Positions 10,951 through 52,933 of a stretch of 62,077 nt of DNA are shown piece after piece. The position numbers and the translations under genes are program-made. The stretch lies in contig DATDYP010000025.1 of assembly GCA_035288985.1 (NCBI GenBank), positions 1-62,077 of the forward strand, read 5' to 3'. Numbering within the stretch: the stretch's first letter is position 1; each line of letters starts with the position of its first letter. The stretch is from Candidatus Nanoarchaeia archaeon (GTDB lineage Archaea; Nanobdellota; Nanobdellia; Woesearchaeales; GW2011-AR9). Under the pieces are notes generated by a model. The model was not told where the DNA came from. It searched no databases and saw nothing but the letters and a program-made list of their open reading frames with translations.

Positions 10951-10951
10951 G

Positions 10952-11311
10952 CTATCCCAAGATCCTCACATTCCTGCCCTCAGGATTTTGCCGAAACAAT
11001 TCCCTAATTGACAGTGTTTTTCCTTTAGCATCTTCAATCTTTCGTTTTGCTTCCAGTGAAAAAGTAAAGGCTGCAACGTCAACCTTCTTAGTGATGTCAC
11101 CCACACTTAACACTTTTCCAGGCACCAGGACAGTTTCCCCGTCTCTGGCAAACTTATTGATCTTATACACATTGACAATCCTTCTCTGCCGGGTAGGCTT
11201 TTGCAGATCATATAATATTCTCTTCCAAAGCTTGCTGTCCTTTGCTTTCTCTTCTAGGTCGAGAAGCAATTGTTGCAATTGGTAGTTTGTCGGACCTGTT
11301 CGTGTACCCAT
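10952..11311 (-). CDS. rpl18e: 50S ribosomal protein L18e
   Basis: TNYQLQQL, RQRRIVNV, VLVPGKVLS; start reassigned to the ATG at 11311. Confidence 0.94.
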   Translation of the reverse strand: MGTRTGPTNYQLQQLLLDLEEKAKDSKLWKRILYDLQKPTRQRRIVNVYKINKFARDGETVLVPGKVLSVGDITKKVDVAAFTFSLEAKRKIEDAKGKTLSIRELFRQNPEGRNVRILG

Positions 11312-11318
11312 TTTGTTG

Positions 11319-12095
11319 TTAGAGCTGTTTCTCCAATTCCTCAACTTTTTCTGCCAGGATCTCGGCGCTTTTCGTGAGCATCTCTTTACAGCTCAATTGC
11401 CCCCAGCTTTCAACCGTGAAAATAAAATTATCAGAGTAGTCTAGCTGTATTCCCTCATCTGCTTCAGCATAGACTTCCAGCAAGAGGGAATCATAGATTT
11501 TATCAGCGACCAATTCAACCTTGTTGTCCTTCACCTTGAAGACACCATCAGTGCAGAGTTCTGCTAGTTTCTGCGGATGCTGTACTTTTCCTACCTTAAC
11601 CAGTGGCTCTCTCTTATATGCAGCCAAGCCCGGCATCCATTTGGCATGATCCTTTCCCTGGCCCATTACAGCGGTCATGGTTAAATCCACTTTTTGTTTT
11701 GACAATAATTTCACAACTGGCATGCCTGCATGGACAAACGTGCACTTCGGATCGGCGCTTTCCGCATCCCCTGCATAGACATATCCTTTCTTGCCTGCCT
11801 TTAGTTTTAGCTGCAGCGTACAGCTAGCGCTTTTCTCATTGATTTCATCTTCACTCTTAGGCAGCCTGTAACTTTTCAAATCTGTTTTTATTGGCAGCAA
11901 CCCTAAGCGCAAGCCCAGCATCTCATCATATAATGCAGAACTGTTCTCCTTGATCTCAAGATCATCAACTGCCAGCGTAGGAACTTCTTCGATGATCAGG
12001 CGACGGATAGTGTTGGCAAACACTTCATTGCTTCCCTTGAGCAGGAATGACAATTTTCCTCTCTTCTTTTCTTCCTTTAGTTTTTCGCATTTCAT
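11319..12095 (-). CDS. rpoD: RNA polymerase subunit D (Rpo3)
   Basis: ANTIRRLIIEEVPTLAV, LYDEMLGLRLGLLP, GKDHAKW. Confidence 0.96.
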   Translation of the reverse strand: MKCEKLKEEKKRGKLSFLLKGSNEVFANTIRRLIIEEVPTLAVDDLEIKENSSALYDEMLGLRLGLLPIKTDLKSYRLPKSEDEINEKSASCTLQLKLKAGKKGYVYAGDAESADPKCTFVHAGMPVVKLLSKQKVDLTMTAVMGQGKDHAKWMPGLAAYKREPLVKVGKVQHPQKLAELCTDGVFKVKDNKVELVADKIYDSLLLEVYAEADEGIQLDYSDNFIFTVESWGQLSCKEMLTKSAEILAEKVEELEKQL

Positions 12096-12143
12096 GGTGT
12101 AGGTTTGTTGATCAAATATAATGTAGTAATGTAGGGGCGAGCA

Positions 12144-12605
12144 TTAAACTCGTCTACCCCGTCTTCCTCCTTTCATCCGGCAGCCGTTGTGCGGCTCAGG
12201 TGTGACTTCTTCAATTTTTCCTATCCGCAAGCCAGTTCGTGATAAGGCTCTTATCGCAGCCTGAGCACCAGGACCGGGATTCTTTGGACCATTATGTCCA
12301 CCTTTTGACCGTACTCTGATGGAAAGGCCATTGATACCCTTTTCCTTGCATATTTCAGACACTTTTTTTGCCGCGCCCATGGCCGCAGTGGGAGAACTTT
12401 CCAGCCTGTCAATCTTGACGATCTGGCCGCCGCTGGAACGGGCAATGGTTTCTGTGCCCGTAATATCGGTCACGGTAATGATAGTGTTATTATAAGATGC
12501 GTAGATGTGAGCAATTCCCCAACGTATCTTAGGATAGTGATGCTGTTTTTCATATTGCGGTTCCTGATGCTGTTTTTCCGCTTCCTCGGGCATTTCTTGT
12601 TTCAT
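12144..12605 (-). CDS. rps11: 30S ribosomal protein S11
   Basis: [33 protein letters not shown]. Confidence 0.97.
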
Positions 12606-13258
12606 ACTTCCAGCACCTCTTCCGGTTCTTCCACATCGCTTACCAAATCGGCAGGATCGGCAGGCTCAGGAGCTTTCTTTGCATCAACTTTTGCTGGTTG
12701 CTTTGCTTCTTCAGCTGCACCGCTTTTTTTCTTTTCTTCCGGAGCCGCAACAATTCGTTCAGGATGCTCCTCATCAGCCAGCGATGATTTCGCCTTGAAA
12801 CTGATCGAGCCTTCCTCAACAAGAGAAACAAGATAAGAAGGCATGGAAATTTCTTTTTCTCCCACCATCAGATGCCGATGGGTGATAAATTGCCGCGCCT
12901 GTTTCATCGATTTGGCCATCCCTTTCCTGAAAACAAGACTCTGCAGACGCCGTTCAAGTATATCTTTCAGCTCCAGCCCGAGAATGTTATCCAACTCTCC
13001 CCCGGCAGAAAGCAGCCCCAGTGCCTGTAATTTCTGCAACACTTGTGCTTTTTCCTTCTCACCCTGCACGGTATGCGTAGCGATAAGTTTTTTAGCGATA
13101 TTCTTGTATTTTTTTAAGAATGAACTGGCGATGAAAATTTCTCTTTTATTATGGAGCCCGTAATCTCTGACCACGACTCGTTCGCTCTCGATGTTTTCCT
13201 TATTCCAGGGGTGCATCGGTGTCCAGTACTTCTTTTTGAGTTTTTTAGGGTCTCCCAT
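12602..13258 (-). CDS. rps4: 30S ribosomal protein S4
   Basis: MGDPKK...[23 protein letters not shown]; low-complexity C-terminal tail. Confidence 0.96.
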
Positions 13259-13282
13259 GGTAAGTCTTTGTTCAATTCAGTA

Positions 13283-13804
13283 TTATTTTTTCTCTTTCTT
13301 TGCTGGCTTTTCAGCTGTTTTCGTCGCGCTCTTCTGAGGAGCAGCTTTCTTGGTTACACCTACTACTTTTCCTTTACTGCGCCTGAAGTTGGATCGCGTT
13401 CTTTGACCACGCACAGGCAAGCCTTTCTGGTGGCGGATACCTCGCAGGGTTTTGATCTTCTTCAGCCGCTTGAGATCATTATCTTTGACAAAATTAAGTG
13501 TTCCGGTAAGAACATGCTGATCAGTTCCTGAATCGTAATCTTTTCGCCGGTTAAGGCTCCAGACAGGAAGGCCGTTCTGCAAGGGATGTTGAGCAACAGC
13601 GTTGAGTCGTGCTACTTCGTCATCAGGAAGATATCCTACCTTGGTATGCTTATCTACCTTCGCTACCGTACAAATCATGTCGGCAAAATTAATGCCAATT
13701 CCTTTAATTTTAGTAAGTGCAAAGCGCGTCTGCATATTGCCTGGAATATCAACATTTGCAACACGGACGATGTGCTTGAAATTTTGTTCTTGTTTTTCTG
13801 CCAT
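13283..13804 (-). CDS. rps13: 30S ribosomal protein S13
   Basis: ALTKIKGIG, LNRRKD, RGIRHQKGLPVRGQRTRSN. Confidence 0.97.
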   Translation of the reverse strand: MAEKQEQNFKHIVRVANVDIPGNMQTRFALTKIKGIGINFADMICTVAKVDKHTKVGYLPDDEVARLNAVAQHPLQNGLPVWSLNRRKDYDSGTDQHVLTGTLNFVKDNDLKRLKKIKTLRGIRHQKGLPVRGQRTRSNFRRSKGKVVGVTKKAAPQKSATKTAEKPAKKEKK

Positions 13805-15848: not shown

Positions 15849-17399
15849 TTATACTACTATTTCTTGACTCTTCTTCTGCCGTTGTTTCTTTCCTTTTTTT
15901 CCTTCCGCTTCCTCTTCCTTATCCTGCAGATGCCGTTTCCATTTAAGGATCGTATAATTTACGGGATTCTTGATTCGAGGACAAAAACTATCCGGCTTGC
16001 AGATGCCAATGCCTCTGTAATATGCTTCATTATTACAATTAGGAGGAAGTCTCTCTCCGGCTTTAAAACTGTGCAATTGCCCTTTGATATACACCTCACG
16101 CAATGGTTCTGGATCGTTTTTTGTATTCCAGGAGTGAAGATAGGCTTCAATTTCCTCCTTGTTCCAACCGATTTTTCCTAAATAGTTCATCAGAATAAAT
16201 ACTCCCCGCTTCTTGCCATCGCTGATCCCTTGCAGCAATAATTTCATGCAGGGCGGAAAGAACTCTTCTCTGATCGGGCTGGTAAGGGTCAGTTCATCAT
16301 ATTCTTTTTTGAGAGGTTCTTTTTCTTCTTCTAATTTCACATCAAAGTCTAAAGCCTGGAGAAGCAATTGTCGTGCACTCTCACTGGATACATTTCTATC
16401 CAGGAAAGTGAACATCGGCATTAGAATACCATCAGGTTTAGCCATCTCTTTCTGAAACTCCATCACTTTTTCCGGATCGATCGGCAGGCTGACTAATCCG
16501 GATTTCTCATGCAAGCTGTACGGCATGCGATAGAGATGTCGTGAAGAGATTAAGACGGTGTCGATCTCCAATATTGATTCTGGATTAAAATTAGAATTAT
16601 ATTCATCAGAACCGCAGGGACAGAGACTTTTTTTATTCTCTATCTTCTCCATTAAGATTCCGCATTTGTCGCATTTTATGAAATTCTTTTGTTCTTTTTC
16701 TCTTTTTTCACATTTCGGACAAATAAACTCAAAAACAGCATCATTTTCAAAATGTATCTTTTTCTTGCAACTACTGCAGCTATTGATAATAAATTCCCTT
16801 TTCCCAAATTTATTATTTAATTCATCTAATGTATAGACATATTTCTCATCAAAGAAAATTTTATTGTCTTTTATAAGATATCTTTTGGTGATAACATCCA
16901 GTAAATATTGTGAAATTTTTTGCGCAGCTATCGGAAATAAATCTTTAGTCTTCTGTCCTGCAATATGTGCAGGAAAAGCTTCAAAAGGAACACCGATATG
17001 GAACCCTTTATTACCCGAAAATTTACAGCTGATGTCCTTAACTCCATTCTCCTTTAGCGCTTTAATAAAAAGGCAGGTAGTCAGTTTAGAAAATTCCCAA
17101 TCAATACAGTCGATATCCAGCACCAGATCCCAGCCCGAACGCAGCTGGTCAAGCTCTTTTTTTGATTTGCTGCTCTCTAAATCCAAAGGGTTTTCCCATA
17201 ACTCCTCGCTGGCATGGAAGGATGTTACACCGCGAAGAGAAAGTTCAAGAATTTCTTTAGGATAGGTAAGAATATCAGGCCGCTTGCCGAATGCATCAAT
17301 ATAACGGAAGCCTATCTCTTTGTTTTTGGCGTGCGCTATGATAGCATCCTGGATATCTTTCCGTTTATAGAAGCGTACGCAAACTCCTTTGTCAAGCAT
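15849..17399 (-). CDS. priS: Fused PriS-PriL DNA primase (DPANN type) with Cys-rich insertion
   Basis: PriS motifs DLVLDID, FSGNKGFH, RHLYRMPYSLH followed by a PriL-CTD-like region with PPC, PPNC and ICKPDSFC. Confidence 0.88.
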   Translation of the reverse strand: MLDKGVCVRFYKRKDIQDAIIAHAKNKEIGFRYIDAFGKRPDILTYPKEILELSLRGVTSFHASEELWENPLDLESSKSKKELDQLRSGWDLVLDIDCIDWEFSKLTTCLFIKALKENGVKDISCKFSGNKGFHIGVPFEAFPAHIAGQKTKDLFPIAAQKISQYLLDVITKRYLIKDNKIFFDEKYVYTLDELNNKFGKREFIINSCSSCKKKIHFENDAVFEFICPKCEKREKEQKNFIKCDKCGILMEKIENKKSLCPCGSDEYNSNFNPESILEIDTVLISSRHLYRMPYSLHEKSGLVSLPIDPEKVMEFQKEMAKPDGILMPMFTFLDRNVSSESARQLLLQALDFDVKLEEEKEPLKKEYDELTLTSPIREEFFPPCMKLLLQGISDGKKRGVFILMNYLGKIGWNKEEIEAYLHSWNTKNDPEPLREVYIKGQLHSFKAGERLPPNCNNEAYYRGIGICKPDSFCPRIKNPVNYTILKWKRHLQDKEEEAEGKKGKKQRQKKSQEIVV

Positions 17400-27515: not shown

Positions 27516-29801
27516 ATGCCAGAGGAAATCAAACTGAAAGTAATGGAAGCTGTACAGGATGATGTCAATAAGGGCATCGTCAAGATAGATTCCAATTTCA
27601 TGAAACAGATTGAAGTCAATCCAGGCGATATTGTCGAAGTTAAGGGAGAACGAGCAACCGCAGCTATCGTTGACCGTGCTTATCCTGGCGACATCGGCTT
27701 GAATATCATCCGCATGGATGGGAATATCAGGAAAAACAGCCGTACTTCTATTGGTGAGATGGTCACGGTACGAAAAGCGGAAGTGAAACCGGCTGTGAAA
27801 GTGTCCATTGCTCCGGTCAATAAGGGCGTGATGGTCAAAGCCTCTCCAGAACTGTTTAAACAAGGCTTACTGGGAAAGGCACTGATCAAGGGCGACATCG
27901 TTTCCTTAGGAGGACCGCGACGAAGGTCAGCATTCAGAGGAAATGATATTAATGACATCTTCTCTATGATGGAATCACATTTTGCCGGCTATGGCTTTGG
28001 TTCATTGAAGTTTATTGTTGTTGACACCCTGCCGCGCAAGGAAACGGTTGTCGTAACGCCAGAAACAGAAGTTGAATTTAATCCCAAGGCTATCGAGCTG
28101 AAAGAAGAAAGCATCAGTTTAGGGATCAACTATGAAGATATCGGCGGCCTAAGTGAGGAAATCAATAAAGTGAGGGAGATGATCGAGCTGCCGCTGAAAC
28201 ATCCGGAGATTTTTGAAAAGCTGGGCATTGAACCTCCTAAAGGAGTGCTGCTGCACGGCCCGCCGGGAACAGGAAAAACCCTATTAGCAAAAGCAGTTGC
28301 CTCTGAAACAAATGCACATTTTATCTTAATCAACGGTCCGGAAGTGATCTCCAAATTTTATGGCGAATCGGAGGCTAACCTGCGCAAGAAATTTGAAGAA
28401 GCAGAGCAGAATGCACCATCCATCATCTTCTTTGACGAGATTGATGCCATCGCCACAAAACGGGAAGAAACCAGAGGCGATGTTGAGAAACGTGTCGTAG
28501 CACAATTACTAGGCCTGATGGACGGCTTGAAAAGCAGGGGCAAGGTGATTGTCATCGCCGCTACCAACATACCTAATCTTCTTGATGCAGCCTTACGGCG
28601 GCCAGGACGTTTTGACCGGGAAATTGAGATCGGCGTTCCCGACAAGAATGGAAGATTGGATATTTTGAAAATCCATACGCGGAACATGCCTTTGGCAAAA
28701 AATGTCAGCCTTAAAGAAACCGCCAAAGTTACCCATGGCTTTGTAGGAGCGGATTTAAATTCATTAGCTAAAGAAGCAGCCATGATCGTCCTGCGGCGGA
28801 TCTTGCCGCAGTTAAAAGTTGAAGGAGTTGAGGATGGTGAGCCAATCCCAAAAGAGATCCTGGAAAAACTGATGGTGACGCAGAAAGATTTCCTGGAAGC
28901 GTTGAAAGTGGTCAGGCCTTCAGCAATGCGTGAAGTCCTTGTTGAAACTCCGGATGTAGCTTGGACAGATATCGGCGGTTTGGAGGACGTGAAAGAAAGG
29001 TTAAAGGAAGCAGTGGAATTGCCATTGAAAAGGCCGGAAGTGTTCAAGCGCCTGGGCATCAGGCCGCCGCGGGGAATACTATTGTATGGTCCGCCTGGAA
29101 CCGGAAAAACGTTATTGGCAAAAGCGGTAGCCAGGGAAAGTGAAGCTAATTTTATCCTCGTCAATGGTCCGAGCTTGTTAAGCAAATGGGTAGGAGAGTC
29201 TGAAAAGGCAGTCAGGGAAATTTTCCGCAAAGCCAGACAGACCGCGCCAACAATATTGTTCTTTGATGAGATTGATGCTCTCGTTCCGCGGCGGAATTCC
29301 GGGAGCGATGCCAAAGTTAATGAGCGTGTTGTTAACCAGATGCTAACTGAGATGGACGGATTAGAAAGTTTAAATGATGTTGTGATCATCGGTGCAACCA
29401 ACAGACCTGATATTGTTGATCCAGCATTATTGCGGCAAGGGCGTTTTGATCGCGTTATCTTAACACCAGTTGCTGATGAAGAAGGAAGGAAGAAAATATT
29501 TGAGATTTACACCAAGAAAATGCCGGTTGCAGCAGATGTTGATGTGGCTGAATTGGCAGCCAAGACACAGGGCTATGTGGGAGCAGATATTGAAGGAGTC
29601 TGCCGGGAAGCTGGCATGATCGCGCTGCGGGAAAATATAGACAGCAGCAAGATTACCATGGAACATTTCATGAAAGCGTTGGAGATTGTCAATCCTTCCG
29701 TTGACGAAGAAGTTGAGGAAGTGTATGATAAGCTTAAGGATTATTTCAGTTCAGCCAGAGCTAAGGAAATCAAGATTGAGAAAGCGGCTTATTTTGGGTG
29801 A
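27516..29801 (+). CDS. cdc48: Cdc48/VCP-family AAA+ ATPase
   Basis: N-domain plus two AAA modules with GPPGTGKT Walker A, FFDEID Walker B and second region of homology RRPGRFDRE / RQGRFDR. Confidence 0.97.
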
Positions 29802-32763: not shown

Positions 32764-33105
32764 ATGGATCCTGACCTTCGACAACTGATAGACAGCCGGG
32801 AATATAGGGGATTTACTGGCGAAGCTGCTGTAGAAGAAGCATATCAACGAATTTCTGAAAGATATGACCAACCTAGAAACGAATCTGATTTGATTATGAC
32901 TCTTATTAATTCTAATGGATTTAAATCCTTGTTTGAGATGTATTTTGCCCTACATCCAGAAGAAGCTCAACAGATTGTGGACGAGCATAATGCCAGATTT
33001 ACTGGATTACGAGGATGGTTAGAACCGTTTGCATACTTTTGCAATCCAGTTCGTGGTGCAAGATATGAGGCTGCAAGAAGGCAATTAGAAGAGCATAAGG
33101 AATAA
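32764..33105 (+). CDS. Hypothetical protein
   Basis: 113-aa co-oriented ORF. Confidence 0.55.
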   Translation: MDPDLRQLIDSREYRGFTGEAAVEEAYQRISERYDQPRNESDLIMTLINSNGFKSLFEMYFALHPEEAQQIVDEHNARFTGLRGWLEPFAYFCNPVRGARYEAARRQLEEHKE

Positions 33106-33111
33106 AAAAAA

Positions 33112-33900
33112 TTACAACTTACTCCCTAACTCAATTGCCGCCTGCCGCATGTCTCTTGCTTCATAGATTCCTCTGCCAACGATGGCATGGAAACGTTGGC
33201 CAGCTGCCGCTGCTCCTTTTGAAACCTCCCCGCCTTGAGCTACAAAACCAGGAGAGAAGAAGGAAGGATTTTCTATCCCGCCCTGTTCCTCAATGTAGGA
33301 TTTGTAGAGAGCAATTCGCTCCGGCTTATTGCCGGGAACGACAAAGTCTTCCACACCCAATTTTGCTGCAATGAGATACATCATCAGAACACCTTCTGGC
33401 CTGATAAATCCAGTTTGATCGACCATCCCAAGTTGATGGAAGATTGCACTATAATCAGTCTTGACCGTACCATCTTTGTTCCTTTCATTGCTAAAATCAC
33501 CATCCAGATAACGGGCATGAGTCATCTCACCACCTACGATAACACCTAATCCTAGTTCTTGGGCAGTTTTGATCCAACTGTATTCAGTTACCGGACCTGA
33601 TTGAGGAAATAATATTACAGCGTCAATTCCAGATTCCTTCATCTGCTCCAAAATACTGCGAGCGGTGTCTGGGGTGTCTGTTCCCAATTTTTGCCCGTCA
33701 AAGATCAGCGGCTTGCCAGTTTCATATCTTGCGACTTCAACGACCGCATCATAACCAGGCCTTCCTGTTAACGCCGGCCCAATCTTATAGCCGCCAATTA
33801 CATCCAAATCCCCCGTTGCTTTGACAAGCTGTTCAAAAACCTTCAAAGGCACGTCACATGCCGGTATGATACTTCGATCTCGTTCAATTATCTTTCCCAT
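33112..33900 (-). CDS. pyrF: Orotidine 5'-phosphate decarboxylase
   Basis: IPACDV, GGYKIG, IFDGQKLGTDTPDT (DxKxxD-type), PGFVAQGG, IVGRGIY; adjacent to pyrE. Confidence 0.85.
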   Translation of the reverse strand: MGKIIERDRSIIPACDVPLKVFEQLVKATGDLDVIGGYKIGPALTGRPGYDAVVEVARYETGKPLIFDGQKLGTDTPDTARSILEQMKESGIDAVILFPQSGPVTEYSWIKTAQELGLGVIVGGEMTHARYLDGDFSNERNKDGTVKTDYSAIFHQLGMVDQTGFIRPEGVLMMYLIAAKLGVEDFVVPGNKPERIALYKSYIEEQGGIENPSFFSPGFVAQGGEVSKGAAAAGQRFHAIVGRGIYEARDMRQAAIELGSKL

Positions 33901-34716: not shown

Positions 34717-36519
34717 ATGTCTGCAATACACCTTCTCGATGAAGATCTGATCAATAAGATTGCCGCAGGAGAGGTAGTTGAACGCCCGGCTTCAGTAGTA
34801 AAAGAGATAGTAGAAAATTCCCTGGATGCCCAGGCGACGAAGATAGATGTAGAAATACAAGATTCCGGCAAGAAGCTGATAAAAGTAAGTGATAACGGCG
34901 AAGGGATGAGCAAAGAAGATGTCTTAAAATCCGTCCTCAGGCATGCTACCAGCAAGATCCAGTCCGTGGAAGAATTATTTTCCATCACCACTCTCGGCTT
35001 TCGCGGCGAAGCCCTGGCCAGCATCGCAGCCGTATCACAACTTTCTATTACTTCAAAACAGAAAGGAAAACTAGAAGGGTTTACTATGGTACTAGAAAAC
35101 GGAGGTATCATCAATTCTGGAATCGCTGCAGCAGAAGAAGGTACAACTGTAGAAGTTCGTAATCTCTTTTTCAATACACCAGCAAGAAAAAAATTTCTCA
35201 AGACCGATGCCGTGGAGTTGCGGCATATCATTGATGTGGTCATTAACTACGCTCTAGCCAACCCGAAAGTTTCTTTCAAACTAACACACGAAGGGCACAC
35301 GCTGCTGCATTCGCCTGCTGTTGCTGATGCACGGAGCAATATTGCTTCTATCTACGGGATACAGCTGGCCAAGGAATTGCTGGAAGTGCAGTATCAAGAT
35401 GAGTTTGTAAAAATTAACGGCTTCATCGCCAAACCGTATCAAGTCAGGAATGATAAAACCCAGCAAGTTCTGTTGGTCAATAAAAGATGGGTCAAAAATA
35501 ATGACATCACCAAGGCTGTTTACGACGGCTATCATTCCATGTTGTTTGTGAATAAGCATCCTGTTTTTGTCTTGAATCTGGATCTTGATCCGCAGAAGAT
35601 TGACGTCAATGTCCATCCGCAGAAATCTGAAATCAAGATTGAACAGAAAGAACTGGTGATAAAGGCCGTAACTACGGCTGTTAACCAGACCTTGAGGAAG
35701 CATAACCTTATCCCGGTATTGGATGTTGAGTTTGAACAGCAAACCAGTTTTGGCATCCCTGCACAAAAGAAGGTAGAAAAACCTGCCTACAAATATCAGT
35801 TTGAAAAAGCCCAGCAGACCATGTTTGTGCGGGAAGAAGCCTTGCCATTGCAGGAAGCAGAGGAAGATAAAGAAGTATATCAGGAGCAGGAACCAGTAAT
35901 CATCCCGGAACAGGAAGCTGCTGCAGAAAGAACTGAAACATCAGCAATTCCAGCATTAAAAATTCTCGGACAGGTGCACAAGACCTTTTTCGTAGCCGAA
36001 ACGCCGGGAGGGATGATGTGTATCGATCAGCATGCTGCCCATGAACGGGTCTTGTATGAGCAGTTTATGAAGCAGTACATGAACAAGCAGATTGAGGTCC
36101 AGCATCTGCTGCAGGGCGAAATGATGGAATTTTCTCCGGCAGAGAAAATACTAGTAATGGAAAGAAAGGCAGAGCTAGAACGATACGGCTTCAGGCTGGA
36201 AGAGTTTGGCGACAATGCTTTTGTCCTTAAGACAGTGCCGTCATTGCTAGGCAGGATACAGCCGGCAGAAATAACCTACGAAATAGTCAACAAGCTGCAG
36301 CAGGAGAAAGGTTCATTACAGGAGATACAGGAAGAGATCATCACCAGGATGGCCTGTCGTGCTGCAGTGATGGCTGGAGAAGTTCTAAGCATTTTTCAAA
36401 TTAATGCCATCTTAGATGATCTGTCGTTGTGCCAACATCCCTATACCTGCCCGCATGGACGCCCGACTATGATCAAGACCTCGTATGAGGAGTTGGAGAA
36501 GAAGTTTAAACGGAAGTAA
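34717..36519 (+). CDS. mutL: DNA mismatch repair endonuclease MutL
   Basis: KIAAGEVVERPASVVKE, DNGEG, TLGFRGEALASI, DVNVHPQK, endonuclease motifs DQHAAHERVLYE and CPHGRP. Confidence 0.97.
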   Translation: MSAIHLLDEDLINKIAAGEVVERPASVVKEIVENSLDAQATKIDVEIQDSGKKLIKVSDNGEGMSKEDVLKSVLRHATSKIQSVEELFSITTLGFRGEALASIAAVSQLSITSKQKGKLEGFTMVLENGGIINSGIAAAEEGTTVEVRNLFFNTPARKKFLKTDAVELRHIIDVVINYALANPKVSFKLTHEGHTLLHSPAVADARSNIASIYGIQLAKELLEVQYQDEFVKINGFIAKPYQVRNDKTQQVLLVNKRWVKNNDITKAVYDGYHSMLFVNKHPVFVLNLDLDPQKIDVNVHPQKSEIKIEQKELVIKAVTTAVNQTLRKHNLIPVLDVEFEQQTSFGIPAQKKVEKPAYKYQFEKAQQTMFVREEALPLQEAEEDKEVYQEQEPVIIPEQEAAAERTETSAIPALKILGQVHKTFFVAETPGGMMCIDQHAAHERVLYEQFMKQYMNKQIEVQHLLQGEMMEFSPAEKILVMERKAELERYGFRLEEFGDNAFVLKTVPSLLGRIQPAEITYEIVNKLQQEKGSLQEIQEEIITRMACRAAVMAGEVLSIFQINAILDDLSLCQHPYTCPHGRPTMIKTSYEELEKKFKRK

Positions 36520-45266: not shown

Positions 45267-46493
45267 ATGAAAAAAGTGATAGTATTTCTTTTATTCTTAG
45301 TTTTGATTATGGTAGGTTGCGTTCAACAACCAGAAGAAACTAAATCGGATAACCAACCAGTAACTGAAGAAGCAATACCTGAACCTGCTGAAGATTCTTT
45401 AACAGATGATGCAGAAGGATATGACCCAGAGAAAGAACTATCTGTAGAAGAACGGCACTGGAAGAGAGTATTTGCTAAAGCATTTGAAACAGCTGAATGT
45501 CCTGAGCCTCGTGATCCGAGTAGTTTGCCAGAGGGGTATTATAAGGGTCCAATGATAGATACACATATCCATCTACAAAACTTACCGGGCGGTGCGCCAG
45601 GATTCCCTGATGATTACTATACGGGAGATAATTTAGGAATAAAGCGCAGCATGGATGAATGGGTTTGTATGATCAATGTTGAAGGCACTAAACAAGTGTG
45701 GGGTTTCTTTCCAGTTGCTGAGCCTATAGTGCAAGAATCTGTAGACGTAGTTAAGATGACTTTAGAAAAATATCCTAATCTTTTTGTCCCTTTTATCAAT
45801 CCGCCAGGCCAGGTTGAAGCTACAGTCGCTGCAGAAGAACTGGAGATGATGTTAAATTTGGAACACGGATTATTCAAAGGTTATGGTGAAATAGGTTTAT
45901 ATGGAAATCCTAATTCTCCGCCACTTTCACCAACTTCTACAATATTGATGGGAATTTATCCAGTAATCGAGAAGCATAAATTAGTTGTCTATTTCCATCT
46001 TGGCGAGGGTCAAAAAGAATCATATCAGGATGTTGCTAGAGCAAATCCAAATATTACTTTTGTTTTCCATGGGGGTAATTTGTTTGATATCAGTAAGACT
46101 CAAGCAGGTATATCGCATGATGAAAAAGTTTTAGTGCTTATAGAAGAATTACTTTACAATAATCCAAATATTTATTATACGGTGAATGAACTTTATGGAG
46201 GGGATTGGTTATTAGAGCCAGGCAGAAGCAAAGAGAAATTTTTAGAAAATTTTGCGGATTATGAAGCTTTACTTGAGATCGATCTTCCCATGTGGAAATG
46301 GTTTATTGAAAGACATCCGGATCAAGTGTTATGGGGCACAGATAGGGGAGGTCCAGCTATTTGGGATAAAGATCCTGAGGTTGCATTGACTTTGAATAAT
46401 TATACCCGTGTATTTATTGACAGGCTTGATCCTGCTGTTCAGGAAAATTTTGCCTATAAGAATGCAGAAAGAATAGTGGGAAAAATACAATAA
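45267..46493 (+). CDS. Putative lipoprotein amidohydrolase (TIM-barrel metallohydrolase)
   Basis: Lipobox MVGC; IDTHIH, GYGEIGLY, YFHL, WGTD. Confidence 0.75.
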   Translation: MKKVIVFLLFLVLIMVGCVQQPEETKSDNQPVTEEAIPEPAEDSLTDDAEGYDPEKELSVEERHWKRVFAKAFETAECPEPRDPSSLPEGYYKGPMIDTHIHLQNLPGGAPGFPDDYYTGDNLGIKRSMDEWVCMINVEGTKQVWGFFPVAEPIVQESVDVVKMTLEKYPNLFVPFINPPGQVEATVAAEELEMMLNLEHGLFKGYGEIGLYGNPNSPPLSPTSTILMGIYPVIEKHKLVVYFHLGEGQKESYQDVARANPNITFVFHGGNLFDISKTQAGISHDEKVLVLIEELLYNNPNIYYTVNELYGGDWLLEPGRSKEKFLENFADYEALLEIDLPMWKWFIERHPDQVLWGTDRGGPAIWDKDPEVALTLNNYTRVFIDRLDPAVQENFAYKNAERIVGKIQ

Positions 46494-46494
46494 C

Positions 46495-47760
46495 ATGAAA
46501 ATAATGATAGTTCTATTTTTGCTCGGAGTAATTTTTTTAAGCAGCTGCTCTATTAGTGAACAGATCCAGGAAAACAAAGAAATAATTGAGAATATTGATA
46601 TTGAGCCTAAAGAGGAGGCAGTTGTCCAGAAACCTGCTGAACTAGAAAATGAATCTCAAATCATTCTTGAACCTGAACAGCCAGAAATAATTCTTTCTCC
46701 TGAAGAACAACTCTGGCGAAAAAGAATAGAAAAAGCCCTAGCACCAACTCCTTGTCCAGATATTGTTAAATTAGAATACCCTGCCTCTTATTACCACGGC
46801 CCCTTAATTGATACACATCTACATATTCCTTCAATACCTGATTGGTCAGCTGAAGAGGAAGAAGATTTGCCAACCGATCAGGCACCAGAAGGCAGGTTCG
46901 GTGGTCCACAAGCACTTCTGGGCTGGAATGTAAAAATGAGTGAGATTGCCTGTACCTTACAACGTGAAGGTACGCACAACAATTTTGCCTTCTTCCCTGC
47001 TTACGAAGGAGAAATCTCTCTCTATCAGCTTGAGATCTGGAAGAGAACTATGCAAGAATATCCAGATCAGTTTACTCCTTTCATCATGTCTTCCGGAAAT
47101 GATGATGATCCTAATGGCTTCCCAACTGTTGATGCTGATACTCTGAAAGAAATGCTGGCTGTTTACCCTGGTTTGTTTGACGGCTACGGTGAAATAGGTT
47201 TGTACGCTCGTGAAAATGGCGGATCTCCAGAACTTCCTCCTGATTCCAAGAGACTTTTAGAGATTTATCCCCTTATCAAAGAAAACAACTTAGTTATCTA
47301 CTTCCATCTTGGCGACGGCCATAAAGATAATTTTGAAAAAGTCTTGAAACAATATCCAGATATTACCTTCATCTGGCATGGAGACCAACTCACTGTAGAT
47401 GAGGTTAAGAACATACTCAGTAAATATCCTAATGCTTACTACGGAATCGATGAATTTTTTGGCGGGGAAAGAGAGATTTTTGAACTTTATGTAGGGAAAA
47501 GTAAAGAAGAGTATCTGAAAGCAGCCAATACCAAGTTTGATAAGATTATCCAGCAAGCGATAAGTCACTGGAAATCCCTAATTGAACAGTATCCTGATCA
47601 AGTTATTTGGGGTACTGATCGCGGCGATGCAGTGTGGAATTACGACCAGGATGTAGGGCAAATGCAGGTGAAAATTGCAAGAGCTTTTATCGGAAAGCTT
47701 GATCCTGTAGTGCAAGAAAAGTTTGCCTATAAGAATGCAGAACGATTATTAAAAGAATAG
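46495..47760 (+). CDS. Putative lipoprotein amidohydrolase, tandem paralog
   Basis: Lipobox LSSC; IDTHLH, GYGEIGLY, YFHL, IWHG, WGTD; C-terminus nearly identical to the upstream gene. Confidence 0.75.
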   Translation: MKIMIVLFLLGVIFLSSCSISEQIQENKEIIENIDIEPKEEAVVQKPAELENESQIILEPEQPEIILSPEEQLWRKRIEKALAPTPCPDIVKLEYPASYYHGPLIDTHLHIPSIPDWSAEEEEDLPTDQAPEGRFGGPQALLGWNVKMSEIACTLQREGTHNNFAFFPAYEGEISLYQLEIWKRTMQEYPDQFTPFIMSSGNDDDPNGFPTVDADTLKEMLAVYPGLFDGYGEIGLYARENGGSPELPPDSKRLLEIYPLIKENNLVIYFHLGDGHKDNFEKVLKQYPDITFIWHGDQLTVDEVKNILSKYPNAYYGIDEFFGGEREIFELYVGKSKEEYLKAANTKFDKIIQQAISHWKSLIEQYPDQVIWGTDRGDAVWNYDQDVGQMQVKIARAFIGKLDPVVQEKFAYKNAERLLKE

Positions 47761-47796: not shown

Positions 47797-48930
47797 ATGC
47801 AATACCAAGTCATTTCCTTTTACAAATATGTAGCAGTACAAAACCCTGAAGAATTACGAGATTCACTTAGAAAATACTGCCAAGACCAGCAAATTCTAGG
47901 AAGGATCCTGGTTGGAAAAGAAGGCATCAATGGAGCCGTTTCCGGAAAAAAAGAACAAATACAACTATTCAAACAATTTCTTAAAGGAAATTCTCTATTT
48001 ACCGGGATGACGTTCCGAGAACAGGACTATCATCAAAATACTTATCACAAATTAGTTATTCGGGTAAGAGATGAAATCTGCGCCTTCGGAGCAGAGGTCA
48101 ATGTAGCCAAGAACAAAGGACAGCATCTTTCACCGCAGAAACTCAAAGGATGGTATGAACAGAACAAAGATTTTGTGATTGTTGATGCGCGAAATGAGCA
48201 TGAGTTTGAAGTTGGCAGATTCAAGAATGCAGTTAATCTTAATATTAAGAATTTTAGAGAATTTCCTGCAACGGTACAAAAATTAGAGGCAATAAAAAAC
48301 AAAAAGATAGTTCTCTACTGCACAGGCGGCATCCGCTGCGAGAAAGCCTCTGCTTACTTGAAAGAGCAAGGATTTCCTGAAGTGTATCAAGTGGAAGGCG
48401 GGATTATAAATTATGTTAATCAATACCCAAACACTTTCTGGGAAGGCGGTTTGTTCGTCTTTGATGACCGCTTAGTTTCTGATGTAGCAAGCCCGATTAC
48501 GTTCTGCAAACATTGCCAGAAAGACTGTGAACAGTACGTAAACTGCCACAATCTAGACTGCGATAAACTTACAATAATGTGTGGTGAATGCCAACATAGG
48601 ATGAATAACACCTGTTCTGAAGAATGTAAGACTGCACCTAGACAAAGAAAAATCAGAAACACAAAAGAAGATAGGAAAGTAATAGGTGTCGTGGAAAACT
48701 ATTATCCTAAATCTAAAGTAGCATTGATTAAAACTATTGAGCCTATTCTTCTCAACACCAACATTTCTTTTTATGGAAAAACGACAGAAAACGTCTTTGA
48801 GAGAATAACTGAAATGAGGGATGATAGTGGCAATGAAATTACTATGGCGGAAGCAGAACAATATATAACTATCCCTATCAAAGAAAAAATTAGAAAGAAT
48901 GATAAAGTTCTTGTAGAGGCGAGGATATGA
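47797..48930 (+). CDS. trhO: Oxygen-dependent tRNA uridine(34) hydroxylase-like rhodanese protein with extra C-terminal beta-barrel
   Basis: ISFYKY, GRILVGKEGINGAVSG, DARNEHEFEVGRF, LYCTGGIRCEKAS, GGIINY, FVFDDR, NCHNLDC. Confidence 0.85.
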   Translation: MQYQVISFYKYVAVQNPEELRDSLRKYCQDQQILGRILVGKEGINGAVSGKKEQIQLFKQFLKGNSLFTGMTFREQDYHQNTYHKLVIRVRDEICAFGAEVNVAKNKGQHLSPQKLKGWYEQNKDFVIVDARNEHEFEVGRFKNAVNLNIKNFREFPATVQKLEAIKNKKIVLYCTGGIRCEKASAYLKEQGFPEVYQVEGGIINYVNQYPNTFWEGGLFVFDDRLVSDVASPITFCKHCQKDCEQYVNCHNLDCDKLTIMCGECQHRMNNTCSEECKTAPRQRKIRNTKEDRKVIGVVENYYPKSKVALIKTIEPILLNTNISFYGKTTENVFERITEMRDDSGNEITMAEAEQYITIPIKEKIRKNDKVLVEARI

Positions 48931-49502
48931 AGAAAAGGCTCATTGGATTAGCAGCCCTGCTCGCTGCTTGTTCACCACAGAAAGAAATCCTAACCCCGCC
49001 AGTAATACCAGAAATAAAATTAGAAGAAAGAACGGCACCTGAAGTTGATCCAGAACCTCTGGAAGAGAAGGAGAAAGTATCACCTCACAACGAATACCGC
49101 AACTTAGGAGAACAATGCGGCCAAATCCAGCTGGAAAGAGGGACGTATCCAGTAAAGAAGGAGGGCTGGGATGCCATATATACGGTACAGACTTGGGATT
49201 CTGGAAAAAATTGCTACCTTGCTCTATCAAACCCAGAGCTTTCGGTTGAAATGAGGGATGACGACTGTGATAATACGATCGATCGCATAGGCGTAGAAGA
49301 ATACCCCCTCGTAGAATACCGTATCGGTCTTCGCGGAGACCGCATCGACCTTAGTCTTGACCGTGCTGCATTATCGAGGCTTGGTTACACAAAGCCTTTT
49401 GACAAGATCCTTGAAGAAGCGCAGCAATTTGCCTGTCCGGAAAACAAAAGACACTTAGAAGAATATCTTTTGAAAAGAGTCCTAGAAATTGGGAATAAAT
49501 AA
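48927..49502 (+). CDS. Putative lipoprotein
   Basis: MKKRLIGLAALLAAC lipobox. Confidence 0.6.
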   Translation: MKKRLIGLAALLAACSPQKEILTPPVIPEIKLEERTAPEVDPEPLEEKEKVSPHNEYRNLGEQCGQIQLERGTYPVKKEGWDAIYTVQTWDSGKNCYLALSNPELSVEMRDDDCDNTIDRIGVEEYPLVEYRIGLRGDRIDLSLDRAALSRLGYTKPFDKILEEAQQFACPENKRHLEEYLLKRVLEIGNK

Positions 49503-49524: not shown

Positions 49525-49959
49525 CTACGGCAAAAAGCTCAATCCGCCTACAATCGCTCCCATCAACAGCAAGTTCACCAAATCATAGGCTGTATTAAGA
49601 AAGTATAAATTCCAGGACTTACCCTCCCAGAAAACGCTGCCTAAAGATTTAGTAGCTACAAAGCCTAGCCAGATCAAAGCTCCAACAAGTGCACCACCCA
49701 AAGCATTCCATAAAACTGGGGTTGCTCCGGTAATGTCTACAAAATCTTTAACTAGAAAAGCTAAAACAGCCGCTGTCACCAGTGAAGCCACAAAACTCAT
49801 CGAATACGTTTTAGCCATGCCTTTCTGCTTGGCTTTCTCCATATCCTTCTCAGTAAACTTCATCAAAGCCATCCATTTCTTGCCAAATAAAGGCCCATAC
49901 CACAAAAAGCCCAAGGCATGGGATACCACAGCTGCAATTAAAACTTCCAAGTATACCAT
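49525..49959 (-). CDS. DUF1761-like membrane protein
   Basis: LGFLWYGPLFGKKWMAL, four transmembrane segments, FLNTAYDLV. Confidence 0.8.
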   Translation of the reverse strand: MVYLEVLIAAVVSHALGFLWYGPLFGKKWMALMKFTEKDMEKAKQKGMAKTYSMSFVASLVTAAVLAFLVKDFVDITGATPVLWNALGGALVGALIWLGFVATKSLGSVFWEGKSWNLYFLNTAYDLVNLLLMGAIVGGLSFLP

Positions 49960-50074
49960 CTTTTATCACGCTCCAGATATTTTTGATGATAGAGGAAGAG
50001 AAGTGTTATAAGTCTTTCTCTACCAGCCTTCTCTTAGAAAGATTTATAAGTCTGCTTTTTATCACCACTAGAAA

Positions 50075-50683
50075 ATGACGGAAGATTCTCAAGAGGCCAT
50101 AGGACTCGGGACTCGCTTCTCTGACGAGTACAGAAAACACTATAGTAAGATCTACTCCCAGCTGATGCGAAAAACCGGAAACAAGACTGTGGCTGAAGAT
50201 TTAACCCAAGAAACATTCAGGAAGGCATTTGAAAGTCTTAACACCTTCAGAGAGGGAGCTAGTTTTGGCACCTGGCTCTATGGCATAGCCCATAATGTTG
50301 CTCTCGATTATTTCCGAGACAGAAGGATGCAATCAGCATTTTATAATGGAGCTATGGAAGGTCTGCGGCAAAAAGACGGTCATCACAGAAGTTCTGATGA
50401 AAAAAGTCAACGCTGGTTCCTGGGCGGGCTGGAGCAGGTTCTTGCCGTTGTCAGCAGCACTCCTGAACAGGATGCAATAACCTGCGAGGAAGTTGCTGAA
50501 GCACGGAAATATATCATGACAGCTCTTTCTGAAAAGCTGCGACATGCATACTCACTGCATCTTCAAGGATATACTGATCGGGAAATTGCAGAACAGCTTG
50601 GAATGAAAGAACAGGCAGTAACGACACGAATCAGCAGGGCACGACAGCAACTTCGCAACTACCACCAGGAGCAGTCAGCATGA
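50075..50683 (+). CDS. ECF-type sigma-70-family protein
   Basis: Region 2 AEDLTQETFRKAF...SFGTWLYGIAHNVALDYFR; region 4 HTH GYTDREIAEQLGMKEQAVTTRISRARQQLR. Confidence 0.85.
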   Translation: MTEDSQEAIGLGTRFSDEYRKHYSKIYSQLMRKTGNKTVAEDLTQETFRKAFESLNTFREGASFGTWLYGIAHNVALDYFRDRRMQSAFYNGAMEGLRQKDGHHRSSDEKSQRWFLGGLEQVLAVVSSTPEQDAITCEEVAEARKYIMTALSEKLRHAYSLHLQGYTDREIAEQLGMKEQAVTTRISRARQQLRNYHQEQSA

Positions 50684-51228
50684 AACAAACCATCATCGCA
50701 CGTCTTCAACAACTTGAACAGAAATCGATCAAAAGAGGCATACCTATCCTTGGCTCGCAAAAAGGCGCCTGGCTATTGCAGCAAGTGCAAAAACTGAAAC
50801 CAAAACGTATTCTGGAATTAGGAACTGCTAACGGCTATAGTGGCTGCATTCTAGGCAGTGAAGGAGCTGACCTAACAACCGTTGAAATTGATGACAAGAT
50901 CGCTGAAGAAGCAGTTGTGAATTTTGCTGCCTTTGATATCAAAGCGAACATCATCCTTGGCGATGGCGTGGAAATCGTAGGTGATCTGGCCAGGCAAAAA
51001 AAAGAGTATTATGATCTCATTTTTATTGACTTCTCAAAAAAGAATTATATCAAAGTCCTGGAACAGTGCATCAAACTGGTTCGACAAGACGGCTTGATCA
51101 TCGCTGACAATATCAGTTTTGAAAACTGCCAAGATTTCAAAGAAGCAGTGCTTGCACATCCAAAGCTGGAAACAGAAATCATCAGCATCAAAGACGGGCT
51201 GAGCTGCAGCCGAAAGAGAGAGGTATGA
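50680..51228 (+). CDS. Class I O-methyltransferase (TrmR/YrrM-like)
   Basis: GIPIL, KRILELGTANGYSG, DLIFID, GLIIADN. Confidence 0.8.
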   Translation: MKQTIIARLQQLEQKSIKRGIPILGSQKGAWLLQQVQKLKPKRILELGTANGYSGCILGSEGADLTTVEIDDKIAEEAVVNFAAFDIKANIILGDGVEIVGDLARQKKEYYDLIFIDFSKKNYIKVLEQCIKLVRQDGLIIADNISFENCQDFKEAVLAHPKLETEIISIKDGLSCSRKREV

Positions 51229-51923
51229 ATAAGAATACAATAAGCATGCTGGTTTTTCTTGCAGGATGCGCAGAAACACCCCTTCCTACCCCACCAACAC
51301 CGGAAGTCATCATTCCTGAACGTATTGTCACTAATAAAGATTTAAAGCAGGAACCTACAGACGTTCTTGCACAACAGATCTTCCATGATCTTGAGCATTT
51401 GACAACAGGTGACGAAGCGGGAGTACGACTGATCAAACATTATAATGTTGATACAGAAAAGTGGGAAGAAAAACCAGTCTATCAACTGCAAAGATCAGCG
51501 GTGAAGCTCCCTTCTTATCACTCAGATATCATCGTTTCAGTAAGGGATGTTTATCACGACGGAACAACAGACTTAGAAATCAGAAGAGTTGCTAAAAAGG
51601 AGATCAGAGTCTACCGCGATCTTCCGCCATTCGGCACCCTGGATTCATATGAAGAATGCCGCCGAAGACCGTATCATGTCGTGGTTTGTGTCGGCCAATC
51701 CTGTTCGGGAAGTGATAAAACAGAATACTTCGCCTGCAACGGCAAGGAAATCAGCCCAAAAGTGAAAGAAGCCTTCAACACCCTGGTTGCCCGCGTCCAT
51801 AACAGCCTGAATGAAGCAACTCCTCTGGATAAGCAGGATTATCATTACATGGAACTGGAGTTTATCTTAGAAAGGAGTGAGGCGGTAATTAATCTTGCTG
51901 GAACCAAGAGTCCGTATAAGTGA
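51225..51923 (+). CDS. Putative lipoprotein
   Basis: MNKNTISMLVFLAGC lipobox followed by a Pro-rich linker. Confidence 0.6.
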   Translation: MNKNTISMLVFLAGCAETPLPTPPTPEVIIPERIVTNKDLKQEPTDVLAQQIFHDLEHLTTGDEAGVRLIKHYNVDTEKWEEKPVYQLQRSAVKLPSYHSDIIVSVRDVYHDGTTDLEIRRVAKKEIRVYRDLPPFGTLDSYEECRRRPYHVVVCVGQSCSGSDKTEYFACNGKEISPKVKEAFNTLVARVHNSLNEATPLDKQDYHYMELEFILERSEAVINLAGTKSPYK

Positions 51924-51964: not shown

Positions 51965-52933
51965 TTAAAGATATTGATAATAGACTTCAAAGAATTTTCG
52001 ATACGTTTCTTTTGCTTTTTCTATTCCGAATCTTAGTAAAGGGATATAACGATCTGTGTCTGCTGATTGTAAGGCTTTGATATATTTATTACGATGAGTA
52101 TTCCTGATAATGATAGGATAATATCCTTTTCTGATCAAGATGTGATTTAAGAGCATTCTACCCACTCTTCCATTTCCATCTGCAAAAGGATGAATCTGCT
52201 CAAATTTATGATGAAACCTAAATGCCAATTCTAAAGGATAAACCTTATTTTCCGTTTCCCAGTACCATTTTAAAAGATTCTTAATCTCCCGAGAAACATT
52301 CTCTGGAGCAGTTAATGTAATAGCTCTGCCTAAAATAATATTCGGCAATTTTTTATAGCCAACGCGCTCATCAACGTTTTTCATAAGCTTCTTATGCAGT
52401 TCAATAATAAATTCTTCCGTTATTTCCTTCTTCGAGTCAAATAACTTTGAAAAAATTTCATAAGAATTTTTGGCATCATAAACTTCTCTCAGATCAGCAG
52501 AAGCGACTATTTTATTCTCAAAAACAATTTCAGAAAAGTTCTTTAGAGTGAGGGAATTGCCCTCCAAGGCGTTTGATTCAAACACGAAATTAGCCACGAA
52601 TCTTTTTTTAACGTCTTCCCAATCTTTTTTATTCAATGCTCTTCGAATTTCTTTATATTTTAGGTTCATTTCTTCGATCTTTTTTATTTCTTCAATAGTA
52701 AGGGGGAAGTCCAAAGAATACTTTTTTTTAGCGTCTGCTACTAAAAAGGAAACAATTTTTTTATCTAGTTCTAAGGCAAATTTTTTCTTTTCTTTCTCAA
52801 TTTGTTCTGGAGATATTCCTGATTTTTTCCCCAAGAACTTGCTGATTTTGTGCACTTTCTTTCCGATCCGGATAGATTTATCTAAGTAAAGGTAAACCTC
52901 TCCCTTTGCCTTTCGTTTCTGGATAAAGACCAT
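51965..52933 (-). CDS. Fic-domain protein
   Basis: Catalytic HPFADGNGRVGR and inhibitory-helix-like ESNALEGN. Confidence 0.92.
   Translation of the reverse strand: MVFIQKRKAKGEVYLYLDKSIRIGKKVHKISKFLGKKSGISPEQIEKEKKKFALELDKKIVSFLVADAKKKYSLDFPLTIEEIKKIEEMNLKYKEIRRALNKKDWEDVKKRFVANFVFESNALEGNSLTLKNFSEIVFENKIVASADLREVYDAKNSYEIFSKLFDSKKEITEEFIIELHKKLMKNVDERVGYKKLPNIILGRAITLTAPENVSREIKNLLKWYWETENKVYPLELAFRFHHKFEQIHPFADGNGRVGRMLLNHILIRKGYYPIIIRNTHRNKYIKALQSADTDRYIPLLRFGIEKAKETYRKFFEVYYQYL

Follow-up and report, generated by a model that had tools for sequence, protein, structure and literature searches.

An intact-looking ECF-type sigma factor gene with a predicted archaeal promoter in a Woesearchaeales genome

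Sigma factors and TBP/TFB represent the textbook divide between bacterial and archaeal/eukaryotic transcription initiation. The described systems closest to the gene reported here are the bacterial extracytoplasmic function (ECF, group 4) sigma factors (SigH [PDB 5zx2], SigE, SigW [5wuq], AlgU [6in7], and sigmaE [1or7/6jbq]) and the sigma-70 genes of DPANN archaea (fam00359), the latter being "particularly prevalent in Woesearchaeota" (Castelle et al. 2021, Front Microbiol 12:660052, PMC8204110). That survey excluded mis-binning, found no anti-sigma factors, recorded the coexistence of sigma genes with TBP/TFB/TFE, and left the mechanism open; in the literature we found no later experimental study of DPANN sigma proteins. 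Here, we describe a sigma gene on contig DATDYP010000025.1 (assembly GCA_035288985.1, Candidatus Nanoarchaeia archaeon), whose 62,077 nucleotides were analyzed as a whole (hereafter, the window). Judged by its sequence, it is an intact ECF-type sigma gene with archaeal-style expression signals in a genuine Woesearchaeota-like genome. Since sigma-70 genes in Woesearchaeota have already been published, the locus adds no new category; what it adds is a conserved slot between trhO and a trmR-like gene, estimates of rate and selection, a conserved archaeal promoter, and a comparison of the RNA polymerase (RNAP) clamp.

The 202-aa protein passed NCBIfam TIGR02937 (sigma70-ECF; 83.4 bits against a cut-off of 42.9) and matched Pfam Sigma70_r2 (PF04542; residues 19 to 84, nucleotides 50129 to 50326; 63.4 bits, cut-off 24) and Sigma70_r4_2 (sigma-4, PF08281/PF04545; residues 148 to 193, nucleotides 50516 to 50653; 41.4 bits, cut-off 25.7). 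Its length falls within the ECF size range used (about 170 to 220 aa), and regions 2 and 4 were the only Pfam sigma regions present, with regions 1.1 and 3 missing; no specific NCBIfam ECF subfamily or equivalog cut-off was reached, and no specific ECF group was assigned. AlphaFold2 modeling from an alignment of 42 sequences (mean predicted local distance difference test [pLDDT] score, 83.7) gave two helical domains, both mostly above 90 and with the sigma-4 helices above 85, joined by a disordered linker. Foldseek against the PDB returned only ECF sigmas as top matches (Mycobacterium tuberculosis SigH and SigE, AlgU, SigW, SigL, and Escherichia coli sigmaE), and a phmmer search of solved structures agreed (SigH/SigE, AlgU, and SigW on top). 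The protein thus shares the two-domain architecture, fold, and signature motifs of bacterial ECF sigmas at about 25 to 27% identity over its full length. It differs from them in the unusually long linker between sigma-2 and sigma-4 (about residues 86 to 129, or about 45 to 60 residues, of which 97 to 124 were modeled as disordered), and its gene differs in having an archaeal promoter with BRE (TFB recognition element) and TATA box instead of an ECF-type autoregulated one.

The coding sequence begins at the ATG at 50075, 32 nucleotides downstream of the TATA box TTTATAAG (Table 1); an earlier start is excluded because an in-frame TAG lies two codons upstream. Across 940 crude genes called in the 989-kb source genome, TTTAWA occurrences clustered between −27 and −33 relative to the ATG (peaking at −30 with 64 genes, and with 13 at −32, over a background of about 3 per position), which indicates that this organism makes mostly leaderless mRNAs from TATA boxes, a pattern to which the sigma gene conforms. 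Its TATA-to-ATG spacing matches this signature of leaderless archaeal promoters beyond chance, and the TATA position predicts an mRNA leader of 0 to 2 nucleotides. The element (A/G)AAA-N-TTTATAA(T/A) recurred at −32 in five orthologous loci (L025, L027, L030, L035, and L037). Inspection of the 115-bp upstream region found no bipartite ECF-type promoter (−35 GGAAC-like, −10 CGT-like).

The stop codon (TGA, 50681 to 50683) overlaps the start codon (ATG, 50680 to 50682) of the next open reading frame in the tetranucleotide ATGA (50680 to 50683), so that the downstream gene, encoding a TrmR/YrrM-like O-methyltransferase (OMT) dependent on S-adenosylmethionine (SAM), would be translationally coupled to sigma. 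Three features of the original prediction, namely, full sigma-2 and sigma-4 signatures, TTTATAAG 32 nucleotides ahead of a leaderless ATG, and a stop overlapping the next start, are thus borne out by Pfam, NCBIfam, and the modeled fold, by the genome-wide TTTAWA peak together with the local sequence, and by the ATGA overlap, respectively.

Table 1. Sigma gene, predicted promoter, and adjoining features (window coordinates)
Feature	Position	Strand	Evidence and remarks
Sigma gene	50075..50683	+	ECF-type (group 4) sigma-70 family, 202 aa; Pfam, NCBIfam, AlphaFold2, Foldseek
Predicted archaeal promoter	50036..50050	+	BRE-like AGAAAGA (50036-50042, purine-rich) and TATA box TTTATAAG (50043-50050)
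Repeat TTATAAGTCT, two copies	50006-50015 and 50044-50053	+	10-mer, copies 38 bp apart, in the DUF1761/sigma intergenic region
TrmR/YrrM-like SAM-dependent O-methyltransferase	50680..51228	+	Pfam PF01596; 182 aa
Lipobox (LAGC) protein, third operon gene	51225..51923	+	232 aa; N-terminal MNKNTISMLVFLAGC; start overlaps OMT stop
DUF1761 membrane protein	49525..49959	-	Pfam PF08570, 106 bits; divergent, shares the 115-bp intergenic region with sigma
LIPO2, lipobox protein	48927..49502	+	191 aa; between trhO and DUF1761; homologue in L041/L070
TrhO, oxygen-dependent tRNA uridine(34) hydroxylase	47797..48930	+	NCBIfam NF001133, 257 bits (cut-off 170); Pfam

The setting of the gene is archaeal. The same contig carries an S13-S4-S11-Rpo3/RpoD-L18e-L13 operon (10516 to 13804, minus strand), a fused PriS/PriL primase in a single 516-aa open reading frame (15849 to 17399, minus strand), CDC48 (27516 to 29801), and an HTH_10 regulator, in line with the claim that archaeal core genes flank sigma. 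With a completeness of 79% and 0.3% contamination, the source genome carries a single TFB gene, a single TBP gene, and a canonical Rpo1N. RNA_pol_A_CTD, the C-terminal domain of the bacterial RNAP alpha subunit, was found neither in it nor in 57 of 61 relatives by a scan that was positive in 10/10 control bacteria; by this measure the host, unlike those of bacterial ECF sigmas, lacks a bacterial core RNAP. Also unlike bacterial ECF sigmas, this one has no anti-sigma partner detected by Pfam or NCBIfam among its neighbors (OMT, lipoprotein, and DUF1761), nor was a zf-HC2 anti-sigma domain found in the source genome, by a scan of low sensitivity (positive in only 3/10 control bacteria). The 232-aa lipobox protein is not a classical anti-sigma factor, because it has no cytoplasmic domain. 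Confident RNA_pol_A_CTD matches did occur in two relatives, at G017:C1:32139-32312 (minus strand; E value, 9e-19) and G054:C24:959-1132 (plus strand; E value, 1e-8), in open frames of about 400 aa.

The contig is sound. Seven assemblies from different samples were colinear with the window between 46.8 and 56.7 kb (99.3 to 100% nucleotide identity over up to 9.7 kb), which at the level of assemblies disposes of a chimeric contig, one of two outcomes that the original prediction had named as fatal to it. The identical sigma protein was present on 12 public contigs, GC content was uniform along the contig, and the nearest OMT loci carry the names Candidatus Woesearchaeota or Nanoarchaeia. With a third-position GC content of 0.429 (genome mean, 0.432) and a codon index at the 36th percentile, the gene is host-like, and on these measures its composition is fully ameliorated. 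Scans for tRNAs and Rfam families gave no match in the window. Elsewhere in it lie a full-length bacterial-type MutS (domains I to V; 6118 to 8625, minus strand) and MutL (34717 to 36519, plus strand).

As in the survey of Castelle et al. (2021), archaeal genes share the contig with sigma, TBP and TFB co-occur with it, no anti-sigma factor was found, and the lineage is rich in such genes, with PF04542 matches in 40 of the 61 genomes examined from its family and order. The window gene departs from that survey in two respects: it is of the short two-domain ECF type and not of the long RpoD-like type, and it heads a conserved trmR-like methyltransferase operon near trhO, whereas the survey gave no locus-level description. 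It is a candidate member of fam00359. In many of the relatives with PF04542, the protein is long and RpoD-like, and its regions 2 and 4 are near-bacterial. Examples from the same family are at L003 955-2250, L005 979-2937 (minus strand), and L006 934-3111 (minus strand) (431, 652, and 725 aa), with almost bacterial-consensus regions 2.1 to 2.4 and 4.2 (e.g., DLIQEGNxGLMKAVxKFDxxxGxKFSTYAxWWIRQ) behind long, unrelated N-terminal extensions. No such gene was found in the source genome (79% complete), whose sigmas are two short ECF-type genes only. The second (172 aa, 33% identical to the window's; contig C15 of G000, about 33017 to 33535, minus strand; L002 1231-1749) lies directly downstream of a PIN/VapC-like toxin-antitoxin pair, near RNase HII and on the same contig as Rpo1N.

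Of 114 family genomes, 17 have homologues of the window's ECF-type sigma, and protein libraries holding billions of proteins contained none between 100% and about 34 to 43% identity. Tandem ECF-type pairs at L024 1489-2852 (minus strand; G015) and L062 1295-2477 (plus strand; a JGI metagenome contig) point to local duplication within the family. The window protein is 25 to 33% identical to all its relatives, compared with about 63% for the OMT and 56 to 75% for TrhO, and in species pairs whose OMTs are 65 to 83% identical the sigmas are only 25 to 46% identical. By the Nei-Gojobori method, at usable divergence, dN/dS (omega) was 0.18 to 0.28 for sigma and 0.07 to 0.13 for the OMT, and sigma dN was about four times that of the OMT (about 0.4 to 0.5 against about 0.1). 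Per-domain omega values of 0.1 to 0.36 show both domains to be constrained, with sigma-4 somewhat faster than sigma-2. Omega below 1, a fast rate, and a patchy presence among congeners together describe a gene that is maintained by selection, fast evolving, and dispensable. The phylogeny and dN/dS comparison across Woesearchaeal homologues, proposed as a check on the original prediction, therefore found purifying selection, and the second outcome named as fatal to it, a recent singleton transfer under relaxed selection, is contradicted by syntenic orthologues in other genera, by these omega values, and by host-like codons. Replacement of sigma cassettes at the OMT slot was also considered. In a quick maximum likelihood tree, the OMT-linked sigmas fell into two groups with weak support, but the approximately unbiased (AU) test did not reject a single clade either of the OMT-linked sigmas (P = 0.15) or of all Woesearchaeal ECF types (P = 0.26); replacement is thus neither shown nor excluded, and the dN contrast is compatible with fast evolution in situ.

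Against this divergence, certain positions were fixed across the 17 Woesearchaeal homologues. In region 2.2 these were A40-E-D-L-T-Q45-x-x-F48 (AEDLTQETF in the window protein), which answers the proposed check on retention of core-binding residues; in regions 2.3/2.4, W67 and I71-A-x-N74 (IAHN in the window protein); beyond them, P130-E131; and in sigma-4, L161, E170-I171, and the helix G-T-V-x-S-R-x-x-R-A-R, with arginines R185, R188, and R190 kept. Frequencies at the fixed positions resemble those among bacterial-type hits. The fixed ECF positions point to a protein interface and nucleic-acid contacts that have probably both been kept.

Three options had been offered for such a protein: a repurposed DNA-binding regulator, a factor docking on the archaeal clamp, and an effector aimed at the polymerase of a bacterial partner. 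The first is the most economical. Archaeal gene-specific regulators are mostly bacterial-type helix-turn-helix (HTH) proteins that act at BRE/TATA, and they are often co-transcribed with the genes under their control. Since only archaeal RNAP with TBP/TFB was detected, and no bacterial core or anti-sigma factor, the sigma most likely acts like these regulators. We therefore favor, tentatively and at somewhat less than an even chance, a domesticated, sequence-specific DNA-binding regulator that would act on BRE/TATA promoters, possibly including that of its own operon, and would have a protein partner as well. On this reading, a bacterial ECF sigma would have been acquired long ago by Woesearchaeales and would now be a resident, fast-evolving accessory gene, predicted to be transcribed from its own BRE/TATA promoter as a leaderless or nearly leaderless message and as the first cistron of a sigma/trmR-like methyltransferase/lipoprotein operon. 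Binding to a specific DNA site close to promoters of the BRE/TATA type would fall to sigma-4 and perhaps also to sigma-2; the bound protein would modulate recruitment of TBP/TFB/RNAP, plausibly at its own operon too, and the conserved, exposed face of region 2.2 (AEDLTQxxF) would retain a protein partner. The likeness to Lrp/AsnC, ArsR, TrmB, and HTH_10/Bat regulators is one of proposed mode of action; homology to them is limited to the sigma-4 HTH, and unlike them the window protein keeps a sigma-2 domain with core-binding and single-strand-binding motifs.

Three observations weigh against a plain regulator. The residues kept despite strong divergence are those of bacterial core binding (region 2.2) and of −10 strand capture (W67 and I71-A-x-N74), which is more than an ordinary HTH regulator would need. 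No operator-like motif beyond the TATA box was conserved in orthologous loci. The gene is also dispensable, being missing from its slot in about 5 of 16 congeners in genus g75 and in most OMT-bearing genera. Within the window, the TTATAAGTCT pair is a candidate for an operator or for an additional promoter: the copy at 50044 to 50053 overlaps the sigma TATA box, and two of the five copies in the 989-kb genome fall between DUF1761 and sigma. Orthologous loci do not share the repeat, and it was rejected as a genome-wide operator, since five copies are near chance expectation (about 4, estimated from base composition) and none of the other three is at a promoter.

Beside the domesticated regulator, functions other than those weighed here retain a modest share of the probability. 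The first specific alternative is a hybrid initiation factor, in which sigma-2 would dock on the clamp coiled-coil of Rpo1N (the TFE-alpha/Spt5 site) and add promoter specificity or strand opening beside TBP/TFB. We consider it unlikely, though the motifs just named speak for it: region 2.2, W67, and I71-A-x-N74 are as conserved in the 17 Woesearchaeal homologues (25 to 45% identity) as in bacterial-like hits, and the relatives keep RpoD-like sigmas with near-bacterial region 2. The winged helix of TFE-alpha binds the same coiled-coil element, and DPANN archaea lack TFE-beta (PMC7289017). The host's own Rpo1N coiled-coil is homologous to E. coli beta' 253-310 (rpoC from NC_000913.3; 33% identity over 135 residues; E value, 7e-23), which also favors docking, but at the positions aligned to beta' R275, E295, and A302 it has I, L, and H. 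The alignment paired the host's Rpo1N with E. coli beta' alone. Those three beta' residues count in the mutational literature as critical for sigma70 binding, and the Rpo1N coiled-coil looks, presumably, like a canonical archaeal A'; its residues weakly disfavor docking of the bacterial style. The sigma gene's own promoter is, moreover, plain BRE/TATA. Because TFE-alpha (PF02002) occurs in 57 of 61 relatives whether or not they carry sigma, it has not been replaced, and a role for sigma as its substitute was rejected on the same count; the four genomes without TFE-alpha (the source genome G000, 79% complete, and G019, G032, and G050) all carry sigma, which is not significant given that 66% of genomes are sigma positive and the assemblies are incomplete. 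In its fullest form, with sigma-2 on Rpo1N and the non-template strand, sigma-4 on a promoter-proximal element, and TBP/TFB-dependent hybrid initiation of rapidly diversifying specificity, an ECF sigma wired into archaeal transcription is likewise doubtful.

A second alternative, which we rate as similarly doubtful, ties sigma to tRNA U34 hydroxylation and methylation, either as a dedicated regulator of trhO and the trmR-like gene (e.g., an oxygen-linked one) or as a nucleic-acid-binding accessory of the enzymes. What recommends it is synteny. Every placeable full-length relative of the window sigma sits in the same trhO/OMT neighborhood, almost always overlapping or abutting the OMT, and an overlapping sigma-OMT pair was found in at least nine other genomes (L023, L025, L027, L029, L030, L035, L037, L041, and L059). 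The gene order was trhO, sigma, OMT in L025, L030, and L059 (the last being the closest homologue, P0031), with two sigmas in L062; trhO, lipoprotein, DUF1761, sigma, OMT in L041, as in the window; divergent DUF1761, then sigma and OMT, in L027; and trhO, sigma in L031. The arrangement thus recurs, always tight or overlapping, in the own genus, in g75, in g66 (trhO followed by sigma), and in the metagenomic lineages P0031 and P0032. The tie is loosened by the reach of the neighborhood itself (trhO, DUF1761, OMT, SulP, and Asp/Asn-tRNA synthetase), which is older and more widely spread than sigma: the OMT occurs in 27 of 58 genera and 51 of 114 family genomes, but an upstream sigma is restricted to the own genus and to 9 to 11 of the 16 species of g75, and trhO-OMT neighborhoods elsewhere function without it. 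The genome's other ECF-type sigma also stands in an unrelated context, beside the PIN toxin and RNase HII.

Where Woesearchaeota lack sigma, the slot is occupied by a small lipoprotein, by a gene with a SET domain, or by an unrelated gene. In L071 (G104) and L078 (G111), from g75 congeners, a 130-aa homologue of LIPO2 fills the gap between trhO and the OMT and shares the motif CDNT(A/I)D with the window protein at 48927 to 49502. No decayed sigma copies were detected in sigma-less slots, and the two slots without remnants show that presence or absence of sigma varies within g75. DUF1761 adjoins sigma in L027, L034, and L041 and is also present in sigma-less loci (L043, L044, L072, L084, L087, and L090).

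That sigma is a neutral passenger, a horizontally acquired remnant that met or brought its promoter by chance and has no function of its own, is improbable. Its patchy distribution, its dispensability among congeners, and its fast evolution would suit a passenger. Constraint on both domains (omega, 0.18 to 0.28), a frame intact and key motifs kept across lineages down to 25 to 30% identity, full amelioration, and the lack of decayed copies in empty slots would not.

About as improbable is an effector or decoy delivered from the DPANN cell against the RNAP of a bacterial partner or prey, whose transcription it would redirect. A canonical bacterial-type constraint profile would fit such a target, and the fast divergence between congeners, the variable presence within a genus, and the tandem duplicates in L024 and L062 are typical of interaction or arms-race genes. 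The protein, however, has no signal peptide, no secretion system was found in its neighborhood, overall omega is well below 1, and the overlap with the next gene would couple its translation to that of a cytoplasmic, housekeeping-type tRNA modification enzyme; Woesearchaeota, besides, have generally been taken in the literature to associate with other archaea. An artefact of assembly or binning that fused bacterial DNA to an archaeal contig has next to no probability, since no supporting point was found and the seven colinear assemblies, archaeal genes on both sides, uniform GC content, archaeal promoter, and synteny in other Woesearchaeota metagenome-assembled genomes all speak against it.

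The best solved relatives of the OMT are Bacillus subtilis YrrM/TrmR (5zw3; E value, 1e-18) and a tRNA 5-hydroxyuridine methyltransferase (8k1f), and the protein is 57 to 68% identical in other Woesearchaeota. Together with the upstream TrhO equivalog it resembles the B. subtilis TrmR (YrrM) and TrhO pathway to 5-hydroxyuridine and 5-methoxyuridine at position 34 (ho5U/mo5U34), a likeness that concerns the operon partner and not sigma; the OMT is shorter than the B. subtilis type (182 aa against about 215 to 225 aa) and about 30% identical or less, and its activity is putative. TrhO bears a Peptidase_U32_C-like domain at its C terminus (residues 293 to 369). The 232-aa lipobox protein matched no Pfam or NCBIfam family, and a homologue of it (E value, 2e-37) follows the OMT in L059 (the P0031 locus). 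Upstream of trhO, two adjacent paralogues, both lipobox proteins bearing an Amidohydro_2 domain (45267 to 46493 and 46495 to 47760, plus strand), are kept as a pair in relatives (L025). The sigma operon is followed immediately, on the minus strand, by a gene for a 322-aa Fic-domain protein (51965 to 52933) that resembles "mobile mystery protein B" (TIGR02613, below cut-off).

A sigma under selection in cells with archaeal machinery only means either that the sigma fold has been reused as an ordinary regulator or that a sigma talks to an RNAPII-like enzyme. The locus is a compact test case for the two: a 202-aa protein, a known promoter, a conserved three-gene operon, orthologues at 25 to 95% identity, and congeners that naturally lack sigma. 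Derivatives of the xo5U type are described as bacterial in PMC10516636. The occurrence of TrhO with a TrmR/YrrM-like OMT across Woesearchaeales suggests that an ho5U/mo5U34-type wobble modification pathway, so far described as bacterial, may also operate in DPANN archaea.

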